Counted from the first letter of the stretch, positions 494 to 15,772 are shown. The stretch is DNA of 32,000 bases from an uncultured Gammaproteobacteria bacterium (GCA_963704875.1 CAVPIA010000008.1:648498-680497); one strand, 5' to 3'. The notes: generated by a model from the letters alone, not told the origin. Made by a program: numbers and translations.

Positions 494-3246
494 GCACCGA
501 AGGCATCCGCTTTTTTCTCGACGACGTCGAGGTCGAAGCCCGTCACGACGAAACGATCTGGTCCGCGGCCAGACGCGCCGGGGTGGATATCCCGCATCTT
601 TGCCACCGCCCGGAGCCGGGCTATCGCGCCGACGGCAATTGCCGCGCATGTATGGTGGAAATTGAAGGCGAACGGGTGCTGGCGGCTTCATGTGTCCGCA
701 AACCAAAGCCGGAGATGAAAGTCAGCTTTGACAGCCCGCGAGCACGGTCTGCAAGGCTCGGGGTGTTTGAGTTGCTGCTGGCCGACCAGCCTGAGCGTGA
801 TATTGCGCACGATCCGGGTTCGCAGTTCTGGCAATGGGCGGACCGACTCGGTTTACGTGACAGCAGATACCCGAATGAGCGGGGACCCGCCGCCGATACC
901 ACCCATCCGGCGATGGCGGTGTTTCTGGATGCCTGCATCCACTGCAATCTGTGTGTGCGTGCCTGCCGCGAAGTCCAGGTCAACGATGTCATCGGTATGG
1001 CCTACCGCGGCAGCCACAGCAAAGTCGTGTTCGACTTCGATCAGCCGATGGGCGAAAGCACGTGTGTCGCCTGCGGCGAGTGCGTCCAGGCCTGCCCGAC
1101 CGGCGCGTTGCTGGAGCGCTCGCTGGTGGATGCCGGCGCACGGCCTGCCGCGGAGTCCGTGGACACCGTCTGCCCGTATTGCGGCGTCGGATGCCAGATC
1201 CGTTGTCATGTCGATGATGGCCACGTGATCTCGGTCGACGGCCGCGATGGACCGGCCAATCAAAATCGACTATGCGTGAAAGGCCGCTTTGGCCTGGATT
1301 ACGTTAATCACCCGCAGCGTCTCACCGTGCCATTGATCCGCCGTGACGATGCACCCAAGGCGGGCGATATGCAGGTCGATCCCGCGGATCCATCAAGTCA
1401 TTTCCGCGAGGCCAGCTGGGAAGAAGCGCTGGACTTCGCTGCGTCCGGATGGAAACGGATACGCGATGCCCATGGTGGCCAGGCGCTGGCAGGTTTCGGT
1501 TCCGCCAAGTGCTCCAACGAAGAAGCCTATCTGTTCCAGAAACTGGTGCGCACCGGTTTCGGGACCAACAACGTGGACCACTGCACCCGGCTGTGTCATG
1601 CGTCATCGGTCGCGGCCCTGCTCGAAGGGATCGGCTCCGGCGCGGTCACCGCGCCGTTTACCGCCTGCGAGGATGCCGATCTGATTCTGGTGATCGGCGC
1701 CAACCCCAGCGAGAACCATCCGGTCGCCGCGACCTTCTTCAAACAGGCGACAAGACGCGGCGCCCGGCTGATCGTGATGGACCCCCGCGGCACCGCATTG
1801 AAACGCCACACCAGCCACATGCTGCAGTTCCGCCCCGGCACCGATGTCGCCATGCTGAATGCGCTGCTGAACGTGATCGTCGAAGAGGGTCTCTGGGATC
1901 GTGATTACGTTGCCAGGCATACCGAGGGCTTTGACGCGTTTGCGGCACACCTCAAGGACTATTCCCCGGAGCGCATGGCACCAGTCTGCGGCATCGATGC
2001 GGAAACCTTGCGCACGGTAGCAAGGGAGATCGCGGCCGCCCGCTCAGCCGTGATCTTCTGGGGCATGGGCATCGCCCAGCATGTCCACGGCACCGACAAC
2101 GCCCGCTGCCTGATCGCGCTTGCTGCGATCACCGGCAATATCGGCCGGCCGGGTACAGGCCTGCATCCGCTACGCGGCCAGAATAATGTCCAGGGCGCCT
2201 CTGATGCCGGTCTGATCCCGATGTTTTATCCGGACTATCAGCCGGTCGACGCCGCCGATGCACGCGCCCGTTTTGAACAGGCCTGGCAGACAAAACTTGA
2301 CTCCAGTCCCGGGCTGACCGTGGTGGAGACGATCAACGCCGCACGCGCCGGAGAAATCCGTGGCATGTATGTGATGGGCGAAAACCCGGCCATGTCTGAC
2401 CCGGACACCCGGCATGCGCGTGAGGCGCTGGCGAGTCTTGAACATCTGGTGGTGCAGGATCTGTTCCTGACCGAGACCGCATTCCACGCCGACGTCGTGT
2501 TGCCCGCATCCGCATGGCTGGAGAAAGACGGCACGGTAACCAACACCAACCGCCAGATACAGATTGGACGCCAGGCGGTCGCGCCGCCGGGATCGGCCCG
2601 CCAGGACCTTTGGATCCTCCAGGAACTGGCGCGGAGACTCGAACTGGACTGGGATTACCCGCAAGCCCGCGATGTGCACGCGGAGATGGAAAGCGTGATG
2701 GGTTCTCTGAATCACATTAACTGGGAACGGTTGCAACGCGAGGATGCGGTCACCTACCCGTGCCCTGGCCCTGACCTGCCCGGCCACGACATCGTGTTTG
2801 GCGACGGCTTTCCAAGAGAGGGCGGTCGCGCGCGACTGGTGCCGGCAGAATTTCTGCCCCCGGGCGAAACCCCGGACGAGGAATTCCCGCTGATCCTGAC
2901 GACCGGCCGTCAGCTGGAGCACTGGCATACCGGCGCGATGACCCGGCGCGCGAGCGTGCTTGACGCGCTGGAGCCCGAGGCAGTCGCATGCATGTCCGGA
3001 CGCGGACTGGACGGCCTGGGTGTCGAGCCGGGGCAGCGTATTCGCGTGATCACCCGCCGAGGCGCGATCGAGCTCAAATGCCGCCGCGACCCGGCGGTGC
3101 CTGACGGCATGATCTTTATCCCGTTCTGCTACGCCGAGGCCGCCGCCAACGTGTTGACCAGCCCGAAGCTGGATCCGTATGGGAAGATTCCCGAATTCAA
3201 GTTCAGCGCAGCGCGCGTCGAGAAGGCAGAACCAGCACCAGCCTGA
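490..3246 (+). CDS. fdsA: NAD-dependent formate dehydrogenase alpha (catalytic Mo-bisPGD) subunit, 918 aa
   Basis: Starts MSTEGIRFFLDD at ATG 490, coupled to the fdsB stop. Has an N-terminal 2Fe-2S motif (CHRPEPGYRADGNCRACMVE) and 4Fe-4S motifs (CIHCNLCVRAC, CVACGECVQACP, CPYCGVGCQ). The molybdopterin oxidoreductase body carries VDHCTRLCHASSV, i.e. a Cys rather than Sec ligand context. The extra 60 N-terminal codons of ORF 310-3246 overlap fdsB and are rejected. Confidence 0.93.
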   Translation: MSTEGIRFFLDDVEVEARHDETIWSAARRAGVDIPHLCHRPEPGYRADGNCRACMVEIEGERVLAASCVRKPKPEMKVSFDSPRARSARLGVFELLLADQPERDIAHDPGSQFWQWADRLGLRDSRYPNERGPAADTTHPAMAVFLDACIHCNLCVRACREVQVNDVIGMAYRGSHSKVVFDFDQPMGESTCVACGECVQACPTGALLERSLVDAGARPAAESVDTVCPYCGVGCQIRCHVDDGHVISVDGRDGPANQNRLCVKGRFGLDYVNHPQRLTVPLIRRDDAPKAGDMQVDPADPSSHFREASWEEALDFAASGWKRIRDAHGGQALAGFGSAKCSNEEAYLFQKLVRTGFGTNNVDHCTRLCHASSVAALLEGIGSGAVTAPFTACEDADLILVIGANPSENHPVAATFFKQATRRGARLIVMDPRGTALKRHTSHMLQFRPGTDVAMLNALLNVIVEEGLWDRDYVARHTEGFDAFAAHLKDYSPERMAPVCGIDAETLRTVAREIAAARSAVIFWGMGIAQHVHGTDNARCLIALAAITGNIGRPGTGLHPLRGQNNVQGASDAGLIPMFYPDYQPVDAADARARFEQAWQTKLDSSPGLTVVETINAARAGEIRGMYVMGENPAMSDPDTRHAREALASLEHLVVQDLFLTETAFHADVVLPASAWLEKDGTVTNTNRQIQIGRQAVAPPGSARQDLWILQELARRLELDWDYPQARDVHAEMESVMGSLNHINWERLQREDAVTYPCPGPDLPGHDIVFGDGFPREGGRARLVPAEFLPPGETPDEEFPLILTTGRQLEHWHTGAMTRRASVLDALEPEAVACMSGRGLDGLGVEPGQRIRVITRRGAIELKCRRDPAVPDGMIFIPFCYAEAAANVLTSPKLDPYGKIPEFKFSAARVEKAEPAPA

Positions 3247-3424
3247 TTAGATCCGGCGGTCGACAACGCCTTTCTCTAGCTGAGCCATGGGGCAGGGTTC
3301 CGCCAGAAACTGTCGTTGCAAATACTGTGTTTCGGCGTCGCGGAGATCGGGCCAGTCACCATGATGACCACGGTCGAAACCGAGAAGACAAGGTCACTGT
3401 CTCCCAATTCTCAAGACGTATAAA

Positions 3425-3487
3425 GCGCAGTCAATGCGCCAGGTTAATGCGCCGCTGAAAACGGTCGCCTTTTGCGACTTGTTAACT
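3425..3487 (-). repeat. Tentative degenerate attC-like site 3' of the VOC cassette ORF
   Basis: Plus strand reads GCGCAGTCAATGCGCCAGGTTAATGCGCCGCTGAAAACGGTCGCCTTTTGCGACTTGTTAACT. It has a GTTAACT box at 3481-3487 abutting the ORF stop, duplicated AATGCGCC blocks resembling the TAACGCC end of the better sites, and an internal GTCGC/GCGAC stem (3464-3478). The boxes deviate from consensus and the boundaries are uncertain. Confidence 0.25.
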
Positions 3488-3488
3488 T

Positions 3489-3983
3489 TCAGTAAGCACC
3501 CTGTGAATAAGTTAATTCATAGCTATGTGAATAGACTTCGAAGATCAGGCCAAACGGATCTTCCACGTAACACATTCTGTAGGGTTTCTCGCCGGGATAG
3601 TATTCACGTATCGGCATTCTCTGTTTACCACCGTGAGCCACAATTTTCTCTACAAGCCCTTCGATGTCGGGGTCCTGCACGCAAAAATGGAACGTGCTCG
3701 TTTTCCAGTATTCGAAATCCTTCGGCGTCTCGTTGTTTTTAAACTCGAACATTTCAACGCCGATTTTGTCGCCGGTGGACATGTGAGCGATTTTGAAAGA
3801 GCCCCAGCCGGCTCCAAATACATCAATACACATTTGACCAATCGGAGTATCTGATTCTTCGGTAATGACGGTGGGCTCCATTATGTGATACCAGCCCATG
3901 ACTTCGCTGTAAAATTTGGCCGCTTTCTCTACATCAGGAACAGAAATTCCGATGTGTGAGAACGTTCTTGGGTATGTACTCAT
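3489..3983 (-). CDS. VOC (glyoxalase/bleomycin-resistance/dioxygenase fold) family protein, 164 aa; cassette-like ORF
   Basis: Translation FSHIGISVPDVEKAAKFYSEVMGW...FHFCVQDPDIEGLVEKIVAHGG...CYVEDPFGLIFEVYS shows the paired beta-alpha-beta-beta-beta VOC pattern. The ORF is complete, the DNA is AT-richer than the flanks, and only ~25 nt of 5' UTR follow the GTTAGCT box. Confidence 0.75.
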   Translation of the reverse strand: MSTYPRTFSHIGISVPDVEKAAKFYSEVMGWYHIMEPTVITEESDTPIGQMCIDVFGAGWGSFKIAHMSTGDKIGVEMFEFKNNETPKDFEYWKTSTFHFCVQDPDIEGLVEKIVAHGGKQRMPIREYYPGEKPYRMCYVEDPFGLIFEVYSHSYELTYSQGAY

Positions 3984-4002
3984 GATGATTGCTTGTTTTC
4001 GA

Positions 4003-4080
4003 AGCTAACGCCCACATAAGCGGCCGAGCGCCAGAGAAACCTGCCGACTGCAGGGAGCGAACTTAATGTAATCATTAGGT
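4003..4080 (-). repeat. attC-like site (degenerate) between the 4-TM ORF and the VOC ORF
   Basis: Plus strand has AGCTAAC (4003-4009) ... ATTAGGT (4074-4080). The arms CTAACGCCCACATAAG / CTTAATGTAATCATTAG pair only partially. It shares the TAACGCC, GCCAGAGA and GGGAG blocks with the 4468-4564 site. Read on the minus strand it is ACCTAAT...GTTAGCT, with one mismatch in each box. Confidence 0.45.
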
Positions 4081-4087
4081 GTTGCAT

Positions 4088-4417
4088 TCATCGATTATCA
4101 GAAAGCAAAGCCGCGAGCCCCGCTCCGATAACCGAACAAACAATAGAAATAGCAGCAACTATTGACTGCCACTTGGCATCTGGCTCTATAAGTAAAATCA
4201 GAACGGCCGTCACAATAAGTGCCGCATTAAGCAAAAGAATTAACGACCAATCTTCATGAAGGGCGCGGGGATTCCCACGAGAAAGAAAGAATTGAGAAAA
4301 CAGGTAGTAAATACCAATAACAATAAATGCAGCGGCAACTCCGAATGTTTCACCCACAGCAAACCCCAGAAAGAACGAAATTATCCCGAGAATTAATGCG
4401 ATTATTTTCTTTGCCAT
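4088..4417 (-). CDS. Hypothetical small integral membrane protein (109 aa, 4 predicted TM helices); cassette-like ORF
   Basis: Complete ORF with AAGGA 8-9 nt upstream of the ATG. There are four hydrophobic ~20-aa segments (IIALILGIISFFLGFAV, FGVAAAFIVIGIYYLFSQFFL, WSLILLLNAALIVTAVLILLI, WQSIVAAISIVCSVIGAGLAALL). I recognise no family. Confidence 0.6.
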   Translation of the reverse strand: MAKKIIALILGIISFFLGFAVGETFGVAAAFIVIGIYYLFSQFFLSRGNPRALHEDWSLILLLNAALIVTAVLILLIEPDAKWQSIVAAISIVCSVIGAGLAALLSDNR

Positions 4418-4467
4418 TGATTGAGTCCTTCTTAACTCGACACTATGTATTCACGGGAAATGAGCAC

Positions 4468-4564
4468 ACCTAACGCCAGAGATCAGCTGCGTTTGACGGC
4501 GACCGACCGTAGCGGCAGCGAAGGGAGAAAGCGGTCAAACGTCTGCTGCAGCGCATTGTTAGCC
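4468..4564 (-). repeat. attC-like recombination site (97 bp), the best preserved in the window
   Basis: Plus strand has ACCTAAC (4468-4474) ... GTTAGCC (4558-4564). The arms ACCTAACGCCAGAGATCAGCTGCGTTTGAC and GTCAAACGTCTGCTGCAGCGCATTGTTAGCC are imperfect inverted repeats around a ~36-nt centre. On the minus strand (the sense of the flanking ORFs) it reads GGCTAAC...GTTAGGT, so the perfect GTTRRRY box sits at the distal (R') end. Confidence 0.6.
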
Positions 4565-4609
4565 AGCATACGACAAGATACTGACAGTGTCCGCTTCCAA
4601 AAGCGGAAG

Positions 4610-5134
4610 TCAGGTTAACGCCGGCTCTTCTTTCAGAAACGGCATTGCGTCGAAGGCACTCGTGTATCTATACGGGTTATTCGGATCATTCCGTAGTGCC
4701 TCAAGTTCTTCCACCAAATCTGGTGCGAAGGCGCCCGAAGATTCTCTCCACCACACAGCACCGCCAGGGGTACTGATCAGGCCGTTGTACCACGTCAGCC
4801 AGCCTTTATAAGACAGGTCCGCGATCAGACCCTTTTGCTTCATCCGAAAAACAGATTCCATTTGCAAATGGAAGTTGACGAAAAGGAAATAGAAACGTGT
4901 CTTCACTTCAGGATCTTGTTCTTCGTATCGATTCAGGCAAGCTCTGAATTCGGCAGTCAAGGTTGGATCTGCGATCAGAGGCGCGAACGTGTTAACCGTC
5001 AGCAATTCGCGCTGACTCTCTGCTTCAGCAAGACTGTTGGATTGACGAATCTGAAGGGAAAAGTAGATCAGGGTGACCAGTACTGCAACTGCCCCAAAGA
5101 CTTCCGCGACTGCACTTATTGCGTCCCAATTCAT
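4610..5134 (-). CDS. Hypothetical protein with one N-terminal TM anchor (174 aa); cassette-like ORF
   Basis: The ATG at 5134 is preceded by GGGAGG with a 6-nt spacer; the GTG at 5152 used by the ORF track is less likely. The N-terminus AISAVAEVFGAVAVLVTLIYFSL is hydrophobic and is followed by a ~140-aa soluble region. I recognise no family. Confidence 0.6.
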   Translation of the reverse strand: MNWDAISAVAEVFGAVAVLVTLIYFSLQIRQSNSLAEAESQRELLTVNTFAPLIADPTLTAEFRACLNRYEEQDPEVKTRFYFLFVNFHLQMESVFRMKQKGLIADLSYKGWLTWYNGLISTPGGAVWWRESSGAFAPDLVEELEALRNDPNNPYRYTSAFDAMPFLKEEPALT

Positions 5135-5230
5135 CTCAGACCTCCCATTCACAAGAAGGAGCAGAATACCGTATGGAGCTATTTTATTATTCAGTTACCG
5201 AAGTGGGTCGTCTCCGGCCGCAAACACCTA

Positions 5231-5273
5231 TGCTAACTCCCATACCCGTTACGACGGCTTTGGGTCGCTAGCA
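5231..5273 (-). repeat. Short attC-like palindrome at the upstream (minus-sense) boundary of the 4610-5134 cassette
   Basis: Sequence is TGCTAACTCCCATACCCGTTACGACGGCTTTGGGTCGCTAGCA. The ends TGCTAAC/GCTAGCA and TCCCA/TGGG pair, and the centre forms CCGT-TACG-ACGG. The left end CACCTA-TGC-TAAC resembles CACCTAAC of the 4468 site. It is only 43 bp, shorter than typical attC sites. Confidence 0.35.
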
Positions 5274-5404
5274 GTCATGCAACTCGCCATTTTCTCCTGC
5301 CGGACCAGGACGGGCAGCCGGGGCGACGTCGGCGGGGCGATTCTATATCCAGCCGCAACAGCTCCCTTGGATCGCCAACGTCGAGTTCGGCTAGACTTCC
5401 GAGC

Positions 5405-6934
5405 ATGAGCGAGGAATCAGACGAGGAGACCGTGGGCCAGGACCAGTATGTACTGCCGGACGGTGGGGGCCGCATCGCCGTGGTCCTCGGTGCCAGCGGC
5501 TACATGGGTTCCAATATGGTCCCGGCGCTGGCGGCCCAGGGCTGGCATGTCCGTGCCACGGCCCGCAATCCGGCCGTGCTCGAGGCCCGGGAATGGGGCG
5601 AGGGCGTCGACTGCCTGCCGGTTGATGTACTCGAGCCGGAAACCCTGCCGCCGGTGCTGGAGGGTGCCGACATTGTTTACTACCTGGTGCACATGATGTG
5701 GACCGGTGGGGACTTCGTGCCGGTGGAGCGCCGTGCCGCCGAGAACGCCGCCAAGGCATGCGAAGTGGCCGGCGTACGACGCATTGTCTATCTGGGCGGC
5801 ATCATGCCGAAGGAAAAACGATCCCGGCACATGGAAGGCCGCGCGGTGGTAGGCGATGCGCTCAGGGAGGGTTCGGTGCAGGTCATCGAACTGCAGGCGG
5901 CCATGATCGTCGGCCCGGGTTCCGCTGCCTTCGAGGTGATCCGCGACCTCGTCAACCATCTGCCGCTGATGATCACGCCCAAGTGGGTGCGCAATCGCTC
6001 CACGCCCATTGCCCTGGACAACGTGCTGACTTACTCGCTGGCAGCGGCGGACCTGCCATTCGAGGGACACCGGACGCTGGAGCTGGCCGGGCCGGACACA
6101 CTTTCCTACCAGGAGATCATGGATATCTACGGGGAGTTTGCCGGTAAAAAGACACTGGTTATCCCGGTGCCGGTGCTGACACCCACGCTCTCCAGCTACT
6201 GGCTGTACCTGGTTACCTCCGTGCCGCCCACCACCGCCATGTCCCTCGTCGAGGGCCTGGCGCACGACTACATCGGCGATGACAAGGAGATGCGCCAGCT
6301 TGTACCCCAGCGGCTGCTGACCTTTCGCGAGTCCGTGGCCGCGACGCTTGAGGCCGAAAGGAACCATGATGTGCCGGCACGCTGGGTCGAGGGATCCATT
6401 GCCTGCCGGGACTGGAACCCGAAGTATGCTTACTACGCCAAGCAGTACTGCAGCGAGCAGGAAACCACTGCGTCCCGCGAAGCGGTGTTCCAGGTCTTGC
6501 AACAGTTCGGGGCGGACGGGGATTTCTTCGCCTACAAGCCTCTATGGTGGCTGCGGCGGGCCTTCGACTGGCTCATTGGCGGGCCGAGTTTCCGAACGCG
6601 CCGCCGGGACCCGGACACCCTGCGCATGGGCGATATCGTGGACGGCTGGCGGGTGCTGGGCCTTGAGCCCGGCAAACGGCTGACCCTCTTGATGGAGATG
6701 CGGGCACCGGGTTCCGGGGTTCAGGAGTTCTCGGTTCGGGAGCAAGATGGAAAACGGGTCATCCGCATGTGCGCCTACTGGCACCCGGCTGGCGCGTGGG
6801 GTCTGTTTTACTGGTACGCCCATCTGCCCTTGTATGGCCCGCTGGTACGCGGCGCGCTCGAGGAGATCGCCCGGCGGGCGGAGTCGCTGGAGGCGATACC
6901 CCGCCGCCGGCCGGAGAGCCCCGACGTTGCGTAG
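5405..6934 (+). CDS. Atypical SDR / NAD(P)H-binding (NmrA-like) domain fused to a C-terminal DUF2867-like domain (YbjT-like architecture), 509 aa
   Basis: Has the Rossmann motif VLGASGYMGSNMVPAL near the N-terminus and a long C-terminal region (...WRVLGLEPGKRLTLLMEMRAPGSGVQEF...) typical of NAD(P)-binding+DUF2867 proteins as I recall them. GC is host-like. The start is ambiguous: ATG 5405 has a weak RBS, and GTG 5480 lies just before the Rossmann motif. Confidence 0.7.
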   Translation: MSEESDEETVGQDQYVLPDGGGRIAVVLGASGYMGSNMVPALAAQGWHVRATARNPAVLEAREWGEGVDCLPVDVLEPETLPPVLEGADIVYYLVHMMWTGGDFVPVERRAAENAAKACEVAGVRRIVYLGGIMPKEKRSRHMEGRAVVGDALREGSVQVIELQAAMIVGPGSAAFEVIRDLVNHLPLMITPKWVRNRSTPIALDNVLTYSLAAADLPFEGHRTLELAGPDTLSYQEIMDIYGEFAGKKTLVIPVPVLTPTLSSYWLYLVTSVPPTTAMSLVEGLAHDYIGDDKEMRQLVPQRLLTFRESVAATLEAERNHDVPARWVEGSIACRDWNPKYAYYAKQYCSEQETTASREAVFQVLQQFGADGDFFAYKPLWWLRRAFDWLIGGPSFRTRRRDPDTLRMGDIVDGWRVLGLEPGKRLTLLMEMRAPGSGVQEFSVREQDGKRVIRMCAYWHPAGAWGLFYWYAHLPLYGPLVRGALEEIARRAESLEAIPRRRPESPDVA

Positions 6935-6936
6935 GT

Positions 6937-7263
6937 TCATGAATGCATCCCCCCGAAACGGCGAACCCGCCAGGGATGCAAATAGAACACCTTGCAGACT
7001 ATCTTCCACTGACCGTCGAACCTGACCAGGTTGAAGAAGTCCGTGAACCGATGACCGGTCCATTCGTCCATGTCCAGGCGCACGCTGGCGCAGGTGCCCA
7101 CCACGTCGATTGAAGTGAAGCGGGCTTCCAGGCCCTTTGCGGGCCAGTTGGAATCATTCCAGTCGTAAAGACCCTGGATGGGACGGCCGAACAGGTCGGG
7201 GCCTGTGTATCCACAGATGTTGGCGCCTTCGTGAAACGCCGGGCGCAAAGCCAGTATCAGCAA
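6937..7263 (-). pseudogene. NTF2-like (SnoaL_3 / putative lumazine-binding type) gene, 5'-truncated
   Basis: The translation ...[14 protein letters not shown]...FTSIDVVGTCASVRLDM...FTDFFNLVRFDGQWKIVCKVFY matches the C-terminal ~80% of NTF2-like proteins. The first helix (~25 aa) is missing. There is no ATG (the ORF track starts at a TTG), and the frame runs straight into the antisense of the intI remnant. Confidence 0.55.
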
Positions 7264-7435
7264 GGCCGCATCGTGTCACACACTGCGCCATTGCCTCGCC
7301 ACCGATCTGCTGGAGTCCGGTTACGACATCCGCACGGGGCAGGAACTGCTGGGCCATAAGGACGTTGCCACCACGATGATGTACACCCATGTGCTCAACA
7401 AGGGCGGGCGAGGTGTGCGGAGCCCGCTGGACTAG
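7235..7435 (+). pseudogene. intI: Integron-integrase (IntI-type tyrosine recombinase) C-terminal remnant, 66 codons
   Basis: This frame is not in the ORF track because it is short and has no start. It reads [66 protein letters not shown]. The pattern HTLRH..AT.LLE.GYDIRT.QELLGH.DV.TTM.YTHVL..GG.GVRSPLD is the box II/catalytic-Tyr C-terminus characteristic of IntI proteins. About 250 N-terminal codons are absent. Confidence 0.8.
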
Positions 7436-7481
7436 CCAGGATGCTAATGGCATTGGGCACACAAGGTGCTGGTCCCCGCTC

Positions 7482-7673
7482 ATGAAGCGGTTCGTCCGGA
7501 ACGCCCAAAAGAGCGAACCACTTTTCGACAATCACGGAATTTGTTTCGAGGAAGTCCTGTTCGACGTAGAGAACGGCGAGGTGCTGGATGTACCCGAACA
7601 CCCAAATCAGGCGCAGCATTGGAATCAGAGGATTCTTATGGTGGCGCCAAGTGAGTACGCGTACCGAATGCCG
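7482..7673 (+). pseudogene. BrnT/DUF497-like toxin gene fragment (N-terminal ~64 codons), 3'-truncated
   Basis: The translation is MKRFVRNAQKSEPLFDNHGICFEEVLFDVENGEVLDVPEHPNQAQHWNQRILMVAPSEYAYRMP. It fits my recollection of a BrnT-like subgroup (..RGI.FEEV...IE.G.VLD..EHPN...YPNQ.I.VV.I..YAY.VP...). The expected C-terminal ...IFLKTIIPSRK.TKKY is missing, and the frame continues only as antisense of the 5'-nucleotidase gene. No antitoxin gene follows. Confidence 0.35.
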
Positions 7674-7690
7674 GGAATACCCGTGCAGCC

Positions 7691-8587
7691 CTATCGCCCG
7701 ACCACGAACGGCACGCGTCCGGTAGGCACTGTCGGGGCGGCGCGCTCGCAATGGGCCGGCTGGTCGTCAAAGAAAATGTGTGGACGGAACGCTTCCAGAA
7801 ACCGGGTCTTGGGCACGCCGCCGAGGAAGAATGCCTCGTCGATGATCACACCCCAGTCCAGCAGAGTACGGATGACGCGTTCATGCGTCGGTCGGCCACG
7901 GGCGGTCACCAGTGCGGTTCGGATCGGTGCCTGGCCGGGAGATGCCCCGCGCTGGATTGCGGACAGGCTCTTGAGGAAACCGGCGAACGGTCCTTCCGCC
8001 AACGGCTGCCGGGCCTTCTCTGTTTCGTTACGTTCAAAGGCTGCTAGACCCTGTTGCTGATAGATCAGCTCTGACTCCCCTGAGAACAAGGTCGCGTCGC
8101 CATCGAAGGCGATGCGGATCTGGTCGATATCCTGATCCTCGCTCCCGGCATAGTCATAGAGTATGGCGGCGCCGATATTGCCGGCAAGCGCGGCCTGGAC
8201 ATCGTCCTCGTACTGGGACAGAAACAGATCGACGCTGAAGGCATGGAGATACGGCGCGAGTGCGGCGCCTCCAGACAAGGCCGCGCGATTCACATCCAGA
8301 CCATAGTGCTCGATCGAGTTGAAGATTCGCAGGCTGGTCTCGGTGGAGTTGCGCGACATGATGACCACTTCGGCACGGCGTCTCTCATCCAGCTGGTTGA
8401 GCCGAAGGATCGCCTTGACCAGCGCGAAGCCGGCGCCCGGCCTGAGCAGCACCGATTCCTGCGCCAGCTGGTGCGCGCGGTAGGCCTCCAGGCCTTGCTC
8501 ACGGAAGATCCGATCTTCCTCACGCAGGTCAAACAAGGCGCGTGAAGCGATCCCCACAACCAGGCATTCGTCTAGTGTCACAGCCAA
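7691..8587 (-). CDS. 5'-nucleotidase family protein (PF06189-type, cN-IA-like), 298 aa
   Basis: The translation IASRALFDLREEDRIFREQGLEAYRAHQL...VVIMSRNSTETSLRIFNSIEHYGLD...IRIAFDGDATLFSGESELIYQQQGLAAF...IRTALVTARGRPTHERVIRTLLDWGV..DEAFFLGG..K...L.AF.PHIFFDDQ matches the conserved blocks of this family. The TTG start at 8587 is preceded by GGGAGG with a 6-nt spacer. Confidence 0.85.
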   Translation of the reverse strand: MAVTLDECLVVGIASRALFDLREEDRIFREQGLEAYRAHQLAQESVLLRPGAGFALVKAILRLNQLDERRRAEVVIMSRNSTETSLRIFNSIEHYGLDVNRAALSGGAALAPYLHAFSVDLFLSQYEDDVQAALAGNIGAAILYDYAGSEDQDIDQIRIAFDGDATLFSGESELIYQQQGLAAFERNETEKARQPLAEGPFAGFLKSLSAIQRGASPGQAPIRTALVTARGRPTHERVIRTLLDWGVIIDEAFFLGGVPKTRFLEAFRPHIFFDDQPAHCERAAPTVPTGRVPFVVGR

Positions 8588-10836: not shown

Positions 10837-11226
10837 TCACACCCGGCGCTTCTTGGGCGGCCGGCAGCCATTGTGTGGAATTGGCGTGACGTCCGCGATC
10901 TGCGAGATCCGGAAACCCACCGCGTTGAGCGAACGAACCGCGGATTCGCGACCCGGCCCGGGGCCTTTGACCCGGACTTCCATGTTTTGTACGCCGTATT
11001 CCTTGGCTGCCAGTCCGGCCTTCTCCGCCGCAACCTGGGCAGCGAAGGGCGTGCTCTTGCGTGAACCACGGAAACCGCAGCCACCAGAAGTCGCCCAGGA
11101 CAAGGCGTTACCCTGGCGGTCGGTGATGGTGATGATCGTGTTGTTGAAAGACGCGTGGATGTGAGCGATGGCATCGACCACCGTCTTCTTTACTTTCTTT
11201 CGCGTCTTTGTCGTCGGCTTTGCCAT
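10837..11226 (-). CDS. rpsK: 30S ribosomal protein S11
   Basis: Contains ...[43 protein letters not shown]... Confidence 0.98.
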
Positions 11227-11335: not shown

Positions 11336-11692
11336 TTACTTGCGGATCGCACGCCGCGGACCCTTGCGGGTGCGGGCGTTGGTGCGCGTACGCTGGCCGC
11401 GCAACGGCAGCCCCCGACGATGACGGATACCCCGGTACGAACCGAGGTCCATCAAGCGCTTGATATTCATAGAAATATCGCGGCGCAGATCACCTTCGAC
11501 CATATGCTTGGAAACGATCGCGCGAATCTGATCGACCTCAGGCTCGCTGAGATCCTTGATCTTCACATCAGGCTCGATTCCGGCCGCGGCACAGATCTTG
11601 CGCGCAGTCGAGCGGCCGATCCCATAGATATGGGTCAGCGCAATCACTGCATGCTTGTGTGGGGGGACATTAATCCCTGCAATACGCGCCAT
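11336..11692 (-). CDS. rpsM: 30S ribosomal protein S13
   Basis: [30 protein letters not shown]... 118 aa. Confidence 0.98.
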
Positions 11693-15376: not shown

Positions 15377-15772
15377 TTACGAAACTACGCAGAGGATCTC
15401 GCCGCCCTGGCCCTGAGCCCTGGCATCACGGTCACTCATCACGCCTTTGGAAGTGGAGACCACGGCAATGCCGAGTCCGCCCATTACCGTCGGCAATTCA
15501 TCCTTGTTCTTGTAAACCCGGCAACCCGGCTTGCTTACCCGATCAACCGTCTCGATCACCGGCTTGCCGGAGAAGTACTTGAGTTCGATCGACAGCAATT
15601 CCTTGGCGCCGTCCTTGTCGGCGCTGAAGTCGGCTATGTAGCCTTCGTCCTTCAGTACCTTCAACACCGCCTTCTTCAAACCCGAGGCAGGCGCGACGAC
15701 ACGCGTCTTGCCAGCCTTCTGGCCATTACGGATGCGGGTCAACAAATCGGCAACTGGATCAGTCATGCTCAT
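15377..15772 (-). CDS. rpsH: 30S ribosomal protein S8
   Basis: [22 protein letters not shown]... Confidence 0.98.

Follow-up and report, generated by a model that had tools for sequence, protein, structure and literature searches.

A probable integron relic, with an integrase gene remnant and attC-bearing cassettes, between fdsA and nuc5 in an uncultured gammaproteobacterium

Between the genes fdsA and nuc5 of an uncultured Gammaproteobacteria bacterium (assembly GCA_963704875.1) lie the terminal piece of an integron integrase gene (intI), a block of ordinary chromosomal DNA, and three small genes of which at least one is a mobile gene cassette. The locus belongs to a 32,000-nucleotide (nt) stretch (CAVPIA010000008.1:648498-680497, here called the window, with positions counted from its first letter), itself a stretch of a 971-kb metagenome-assembled contig (contig_7848 of ENA ERZ25039514). 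It is limited on the left by the stop codon of fdsA at 3246 and on the right by the 5'-nucleotidase gene nuc5 (7691-8587, minus strand), beyond which lie rplQ, rpoA and rpsD; the closest species representative is 'FCS_Gamma_003', with nuc5 and RpoA 91% identical. An earlier note, made from the sequence alone, had proposed an inactivated chromosomal integron here, set in DNA richer in AT than its flanks; the compositional claim holds for about 3250-5250, to which an AT-rich patch is confined (GC ~0.46 vs 0.63), and fails for 5290-7690, which is host-like.

The open frame at 7235-7435 (plus strand) had been said to end in the C-terminus of an integron integrase, and a comparison of IntI with Xer profiles, set beforehand as the check, put IntI far ahead. 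The integron integrase profile TIGR02249 gives 107.2 bits (model positions 249-313 of 315), against 65.5 for XerC and 63.9 for XerD in NCBIfam; the remnant falls below the curated whole-protein cutoff of 265 because only 65 residues exist. PRK15417 scores it at 82.8 bits, and its best match in the PDB is VchIntIA of Vibrio cholerae (2a3v, 73 bits; XerA 48, XerD 43). A tblastn search with full-length IntI1 from a plasmid record matched residues 263-328 of 337 (68% identity, E 3e-23) and found no second intI-like piece in the window, so that the earlier statement that no intact intI survives is borne out; about four fifths of the gene (codons 1 to ~262) are gone. Since the fragment is just 68-69% identical to IntI1, it does not come from a class 1 integron.

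The remnant retains the HxxR-H box (HTLRH) and the tyrosine (MMYTHV), that is, the second catalytic arginine, the histidine and the tyrosine; the first arginine and the lysine of the R-K-H-R-H-Y set belonged to the missing 262 codons, and the set is incomplete. Integron integrases differ from their relatives by an additional domain near patch III, which is required for attC recombination, and this insert is deleted, as the remnant begins downstream of it at IntI1 residue 263. The fragment is a pseudogene remnant and no member of the IntI family in the functional sense. It is also drifting: at conserved positions of the family consensus it shows F>L, H>D, V>G and I>M, and the remnants of sibling strains bear other substitutions, including a change of the catalytic tyrosine to cysteine in L147. 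A recurrent truncated form of the integrase was considered, the idea coming from the 120 best database matches of the 66-residue fragment, all 120 of them short open reading frames (ORFs); it was ruled out, as an fdsA query shows the same excess of short matches and the examples examined were frameshifted or were pieces at contig ends. With the 66-residue IntI query and with the 299-residue FdsA query alike, small contigs with short or partial proteins supplied nearly all of the top-ranked matches; the database ranking seems biased towards fragments, and a list of matches that are all short is not to be taken as biology.

On the fdsA side, attC sites were sought with a covariance model (R1) built from 16 of 17 attC sites of class 1 cassette arrays from nine plasmids, aligned with the variable centre masked and with the textbook structure imposed (the R box has 7 bp; the L box, which contains a bulged base, is continued by a short extension that bulges once more). 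The training sites score 35-68 bits, and nothing is called falsely in 154 kb of control DNA; a second model (R2) has four sites more, none taken from the window. With both strands searched, filters off and E<=10, the sole R1 match in the whole window is 4468-4564 on the minus strand (36.7 bits, E 9e-7, aligned over its full length), and the same site is the sole significant match of R2 (38.1 bits, E 6e-7), the runners-up having 7.6 and 7.4 bits (E 8-9). The attC search proposed by the earlier note, here with home-made models, thus returned one site at E ~1e-6. An AAC...GTT structural heuristic, by which class 1 attC sites score 13.5-22 and background up to 14.5, likewise ranks 4468-4564 best in the window (16.5) and picks no other, and a generic inverted-repeat search recovers the inner stem of this intact site only.

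The site is a canonical attC, with the order R''(RYYYAAC)-spacer-L''...L'-spacer-R'(GTTRRRY), a class of site defined also by pairing R and L boxes and by one additional unpaired base in L''. Its register (R'' 7, spacer 5, L'' 8 ... L' 7, spacer 6, R' 7) is that of the cmlA1 and blaOXA-10 attC sites, with which it shares an identical L'' (GCTGCAGC) and a right end of the common form TCNGGC-GTTAGNY, the L' being GCTGATC here and GCTGAGC there; it differs from them in a longer central region, the whole site having 97 nt, and in its unrelated cassette gene.

Together the attC sites of the locus form a decay series: 4468-4564 is intact, 4003-4080 mildly and 3431-3487 badly decayed, and 5231-5254 is half a site. 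The second of these (minus strand) aligns over its full length in the expected register at 5.6 bits only, and was not reported by the whole-window R1 and R2 searches. Apart from a single bulged base the pairing of its L boxes is perfect, and its R' core forms the 5' boundary of the VOC cassette described below, colinear with the R' of a detectable attC site in another array (L101). By a criterion set post hoc, 2.9 Mb of background contain 26 instances of this architecture (0.009 per kb-strand), which gives 0.0009 expected in the spacer. The site at 3431-3487 aligns base for base to an intact 57-nt attC of L101 (R1 31.8, R2 49 bits), and itself scores only 2.1-5.0 bits (3418-3487, minus strand, at 5.0) because its L'' box and R' core are lost. 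The half site at 5231-5254, where neither R1 nor R2 finds a match (5231-5273), is homologous to the 3' half of the degenerate attC found after the 128-aa cassette of the sibling strains L105, L103 and L109, the homology beginning at GTCGTAACGGG. Hence the imperfect palindromes that had been read as attC-like separators divide into one solid site, 4468-4564, and others that are decayed, halved, or at 5.6 bits only. Two further details of the decayed VOC site were observed. Within 3431-3450 the sequence GGCGCATT is present twice, 13 nt apart; and the R' core reads G-CA-TTGACT where L101 has G-TTATTC, such that dropping 'CA' would restore a GTTRRRY-like core and a 2-nt insertion may lie exactly at the crossover point.

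Each of the three cassettes is a single ORF on the minus strand, pointing away from intI (Table 1), and the cassette sizes of ~0.47 and ~0.76 kb implied earlier come out at 465 and 763 nt. Four small minus-strand ORFs had been proposed as cassettes: the VOC gene, the ORF with four transmembrane segments (4-TM) and the transmembrane (TM)-anchored ORF stand as such, and the fourth, an NTF2-like ORF, is a native gene. The GC content at third codon positions (GC3) of the three cassettes, 0.36-0.53 vs 0.73-0.81 for host genes, counts in favour of an integron relic.

The VOC gene provides the clearest case. Its protein scores 295 bits with TIGR03645, above the cutoff of 262, which places it in a glyoxalase-like family with function unassigned. 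The exact protein is also encoded on L101, a 1.6-kb scaffold of 43% GC from another metagenome, in which the gene upstream is a different 120-aa ORF and the VOC gene lies between two attC matches (R1 20.7 and 31.8 bits, R2 42 and 49 bits). The cassette is 572 nt in both places and colinear without indels, window 4009-3437 corresponding to L101 938-1510, from the G of one R' to the G of the next; the two copies are 91% identical from the start codon through the final base, and the sequences are unrelated just past the 3' G (window 3437). Integron integrases cut at the G|TT crossover point. The VOC gene is therefore a mobile cassette with crossover-exact boundaries, and the check by synteny came out as predicted: neither it nor the 4-TM and TM-anchored ORFs are syntenic core genes. 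The second array was examined for VOC, the other two being assigned as cassettes from their structure. All 43 of the differences between the window and L101 VOC ORFs are synonymous third-position changes, with none non-synonymous; the protein is under strong purifying selection, and this gene at least is still being kept by it.

The TM-anchored ORF has a Shine-Dalgarno sequence (GGGAGG) upstream and a weak DUF6082 match only; compared with sibling L105 it shows 16 synonymous and 6 non-synonymous codon changes. Between its stop codon and its attC, at 4580-4609, there is a hairpin (CCGCTT-CCAA-AAGCGG) conserved in sibling strains. The 4-TM ORF has no family match in Pfam or NCBIfam; its exact protein occurs on 22 contigs, and the eight occurrences listed all fall at this locus in sibling strains. 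A search for sigma-70-like promoters over 3200-5450 gave a single match, downstream of the cassettes, and none upstream, and the cassettes may now be transcriptionally silent or weakly expressed.

Cassettes and integrase remnant are separated by DNA of another kind. The block at 5290-7247, which holds a 509-aa NmrA/DUF2867 gene and an NTF2/Lumazine_bd_2 gene, is native chromosomal DNA and not integron DNA: it is 92% nucleotide-identical to positions 164-2119 of a related sequence, L111, with sharp ends on both sides. In L111 the NTF2 gene is full-length (123 aa) and preceded by a membrane-protein gene, and no intI is present; the L111 homology at this gene ends at window 7247, and the switch from NTF2 to intI homology falls between 7247 and ~7251. 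The NTF2 ORF of the window covers Pfam profile positions 25-116 only, its N-terminus being absent, as the earlier note had recognized in calling it truncated. The junction between intI and NTF2 is identical in the strains examined (L103, L110, L147).

Table 1. Features between fdsA and nuc5, with window coordinates. GC3 is that of the ORF named; lengths and sequences as determined on the strand given.
Feature	Coordinates	Strand	Length	GC3	Description
Left-edge DNA	3247-3436		190 nt		From last attC to fdsA stop codon; GC 0.55
attC of cassette 3, decayed	3431-3487	-			L'' GTTCAATG -> GCAAAAGG; R' GTTATTC -> GCATTGA
Cassette 3	3437-4008	-	572 nt	0.52	VOC/glyoxalase-family ORF 3489-3983; TIGR03645
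attC of cassette 2, slightly decayed	4003-4080	-			ACCTAAT-GATT-ACATTAAG...CTTATGT-GGGC-GTTAGCT; R'' ends AAT, not AAC; spacers 4 nt each
Cassette 2	4009-4473	-	465 nt	0.36	4-TM orphan ORF 4088-4417
attC of cassette 1, intact	4468-4564	-	97 nt		GGCTAAC-AATGC-GCTGCAGC...GCTGATC-TCTGGC-GTTAGGT
Cassette 1	4474-5236	-	763 nt	0.53	TM-anchored ORF 4610-5134; bounds are the R' cores at 5237 and 4474
attC 3' half	5231-5254	-			L'-spacer-R'; R' is GTTAGCA at 5237-5231; 5' half missing
Short spacer	5255-5289		36 nt		Between attC 3' half and native block
Native block	5290-7247		1.96 kb		NmrA/DUF2867 gene and 5'-truncated NTF2/Lumazine_bd_2 gene
NmrA/DUF2867 gene	5405-6934	+	509 aa	0.81	Fills most of the space between intI remnant and small ORFs
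NTF2/Lumazine_bd_2 gene	6937-7263 as ORF; native part 6937-7247	-		0.74	First 32 codons missing
intI remnant	7248-7435	+		0.79	Last ~62-65 codons of integron integrase; natural stop codon 7433-7435
3' spacer	7436-7684				From intI stop to nuc5 stop; non-native; holds called 74-aa ORF
Flanking host genes				0.73-0.79

Sibling strains reveal that the locus is being eroded from strain to strain. In L105 and L109 the stretch from the TM-anchored cassette to the 509-aa gene accommodates two extra cassettes, one with a 141-aa ORF and one with a 128-aa ORF that is VOC-like. It also has an attC site (R1 20.9, R2 43 bits), the remnant of another at 18-19 bits, and part of an orfA transposase gene of the insertion sequence (IS) family IS3, which abuts the upstream region of the 509-aa gene at window ~5371. 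In L103 the same IS3 fragment and both attC matches are found and the cassette region differs (a 197-aa ORF is called, and the 128-aa cassette appears disrupted); L103 and L105 each have two significant attC sites plus a remnant. The window keeps just the 3' half of the last of these sibling sites. At the other end, L110 has a 259-nt deletion (window 7426-7684) between copies of a 7-nt microhomology, G(C/G)AGCCC (L110:2534-2540); the end of the intI remnant is lost along with the entire spacer, such that the remnant abuts the nuc5 stop codon. Several sibling assemblies, namely L002 (GCA_049669125.1), L099/L107 (GCA_049664305.1), L003 and L106, break inside the locus, with breakpoints within the intI remnant, just past nuc5, or in the spacer with the intact attC; these breaks fit strain heterogeneity or repeats at the locus.

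Given an integrase pseudogene and cassettes with attC sites, the locus is very probably the relic of a sedentary chromosomal integron, one that has ceased to function. As to its history, we lean slightly towards a single integron that once stood between fdsA and nuc5. Its centre, comprising the proximal cassettes, attI, the cassette promoter Pc and intI codons 1 to ~262, would have been lost in a rearrangement that joined the integron to the 1.96-kb block of ordinary chromosomal DNA; an IS3-type element may have caused this rearrangement, its involvement being probable because an IS3 fragment lies at that junction in the siblings. Both halves would then derive from one integron, and removing 5290-7247 in silico indeed leaves cassettes (minus strand) followed by intI (plus strand), the canonical divergent order. 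As it stands the locus is no complete integron, since the 5' part of intI is missing and the place expected for attI and Pc holds native DNA. Without integrase and attI the cassettes can be neither excised nor reshuffled in cis; the intact attC at 4468-4564 alone could still be used by an integrase acting in trans.

Several points weigh against this reading. Only one attC is significant, so that by a strict two-attC rule the array amounts to one site plus arguments from homology; and R1 and R2 are home-made models that missed a genuine class 1 attC outside their training, that of aac(6')-Iae, and are specific rather than sensitive. The extra domain that defines IntI belongs to the deleted part. 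Native DNA separates the two integron parts and none of the strains found has an intact platform, and therefore a common origin follows from orientation and proximity only. Finally, the AT-rich and apparently recent cassettes lie far from the intI remnant, so that, if they were inserted at attI, the proximal array must have been lost or rearranged. As to how the block came between the two parts, the 509-aa and NTF2 genes may have been put between integrase gene and array by integron- or IS3-linked recombination. We regard this as improbable; if true, an integron platform would here be caught in the middle of its destruction by capture or rearrangement of chromosomal DNA, its intact attC keeping cassettes available to integrases in trans.

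A more serious competitor, though one to which we would give only about a quarter of our belief, invokes two independent events: the remnant's own array, once between intI and NTF2, was fully deleted, and the cassettes on the fdsA side are a separate cluster of attC sites lacking an integrase (CALIN), derived from a multi-cassette circle inserted at a secondary, non-att site by this integrase before its loss or by another in trans. The native block between the two parts and the proximal cassette end without a full attC both speak for it, and secondary-site integration is one of the listed origins of CALIN (Cury et al. 2016, PMC4889954). Moreover, integrase-catalysed insertion of cassettes outside att sites is reported in a preprint (bioRxiv 10.1101/2022.09.11.507474), and such insertion would leave cassettes away from attI with no adjacent integrase. 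The junctions of the present locus, however, do not look like clean attC x GTT junctions: the distal one reads G|CA..., not G|TT. In sibling strains, moreover, the array runs further proximally, through more cassettes and an attC remnant to the IS3 fragment, showing that it was once longer; what now forms its proximal end is therefore a junction left by a deletion or an IS rather than a clean junction of attC with a secondary site. L111, too, differs on both sides of the block, which points to rearrangement and not to two insertions into a colinear chromosome.

The contiguous arrangement favoured by the earlier note, intI followed on the opposite strand by a four-cassette array (NTF2-like, TM-anchored, 4-TM, VOC), is now very unlikely. 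It had on its side the strand and order of the small ORFs and the truncation of NTF2 exactly at the start of the intI fragment. It took no account of the 509-aa gene, however, with which NTF2 is convergent at a distance of 2 nt; both genes have host-like GC3, and both occur in L111 with NTF2 full-length and no integron. Homologues of the 509-aa protein are found at 52 metagenome loci (54-99% identity, mostly 76-98%), with NTF2 beside the gene only in relatives of 95-99%, and no significant attC was detected in 216 kb of context around these homologues (best E 0.3), in or around the block in the window, or between NTF2 and the TM-anchored ORF. Since the two genes are native, NTF2 is refuted as a cassette, and the remnant and the cassettes are not contiguous; of the inactivated integron originally proposed, the intI piece and three of the four cassettes remain, and the contiguous divergent layout and the NTF2 cassette do not. 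That there was no integron at all, the locus being an ordinary small island in the genome that retains part of a tyrosine recombinase, Xer-like or of phage type, and whose palindromes are terminators or chance, is the least credible reading: the folding energies of the spacer DNA are no better than those of shuffles (an uninformative result, as real attC sites are not unusually stable) and a relaxed attC architecture scan is unspecific at 0.17 matches per kb-strand, but the reading is refuted by the lead of the IntI profile over the Xer profiles (>40 bits), by the single attC match at E ~1e-6 with nothing else significant in the window, and by the presence of the VOC cassette in another array, where the homology stops at the G|TT crossover points.

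The margins of the locus retain DNA of less certain status. On the left, the attC covariance models give no match in 3247-3436, which is unrelated to the DNA downstream of fdsA in L162, an 83% relative; the fdsA relatives searched were either of the same species or this one. An R'-like GGC|GTTGTCG near fdsA may mark a fourth, tiny cassette, though no fitting L'' or R'' accompanies it. In a comparison of synteny through nuc5 across 80 species genomes, no relative has fdsA at this place. On the right, homology with the nearest species (L004) stops ~7 nt past the nuc5 stop codon, at window ~7683, and the spacer 7436-7684 may represent what originally flanked the integron platform on its 3' side. 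The source annotation calls in this region a 74-aa ORF (7395-7619, minus strand; 118 aa from the first start codon) that overlaps the 3' end of the intI remnant. It has no match in Pfam or NCBIfam and a GC content of ~0.52-0.55, is missing from L004, 84% identical in L147 and deleted in L110, and could either be a genuine small gene or have been left over from the flank of the integron.

Decaying integrase genes were also seen elsewhere. Three JGI metagenome contigs (L085:858-1768, L086:500-1411, L087:697-1607) carry a frameshifted but otherwise full-length intI, which corresponds to IntI1 residues 15-328 in two or three frames and converges on rpsD where a ribosomal-protein supercluster ends, in a lineage unrelated to that of the window; infA, map and adk are present in their cluster, with no rpoA or rplQ after rpsD, and neither attC model finds a site in the short stretch upstream. 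The resemblance to the neighbourhood of the window's intI remnant may be coincidence; on a looser and improbable reading, the distal end of the ribosomal-protein supercluster might be a place where integrons repeatedly take up residence. A 53-kb contig of the same ENA study (L084:9264-10210) has an intI pseudogene split over three frames, with attC matches downstream on the same strand (10969-11038, 11537-11606 and 15574-15651; R2 15-23 bits), two IS transposases break up this series, and small ORFs, a glyoxalase among them, come after it; this looks like a same-orientation ('inverted') integron that is also decaying.

CALIN are defined as at least two attC sites without intI, clustered within 4 kb, and an intI pseudogene was found within 10 kb in 15 of 279 of them, pseudogene detection requiring 50% profile coverage; IS elements occur in about a quarter of complete integrons, and intI loss and rearrangement have been proposed as origins of CALIN (Cury et al. 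2016, PMC4889954). The present locus resembles these (PMC4889954) in having attC cassettes, no functional intI nearby and an intI pseudogene within 10 kb, with few cassettes and none related to known resistance cassettes. It differs in having one significant attC and two decayed ones, by home-made models, where two are required; in the size of the intI piece (~20% of the gene and 31% of PF00589), which would fail the 50%-coverage rule; and in the native genes between remnant and cassettes. On balance it probably fits a CALIN with a neighbouring intI pseudogene, a documented class and no new kind.

Sedentary chromosomal integrons with an inactivated intI exist as well, for example those of Xanthomonas. 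The locus is like them in its fixed place within the species, its cassettes of mostly unknown function, an integrase destroyed by deletion or frameshift and strain-variable arrays; unlike them, it has an array of three to five cassettes with dissimilar attC sites rather than homogeneous repeats, and a platform physically replaced and not merely mutated.

What the locus offers is a view of attC sites at several stages of decay in one place, with the intact L101 homologue revealing the exact base changes for one of them, and of a VOC cassette gene that has stayed under strict purifying selection after the death of its integron. Standard ORF annotation would miss it, as probably would the pseudogene rule of IntegronFinder (>50% profile coverage). 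Counts of such relics may therefore be too low, and among the CALIN recorded as without intI remains some may have small remnants of the integrase gene like this one.

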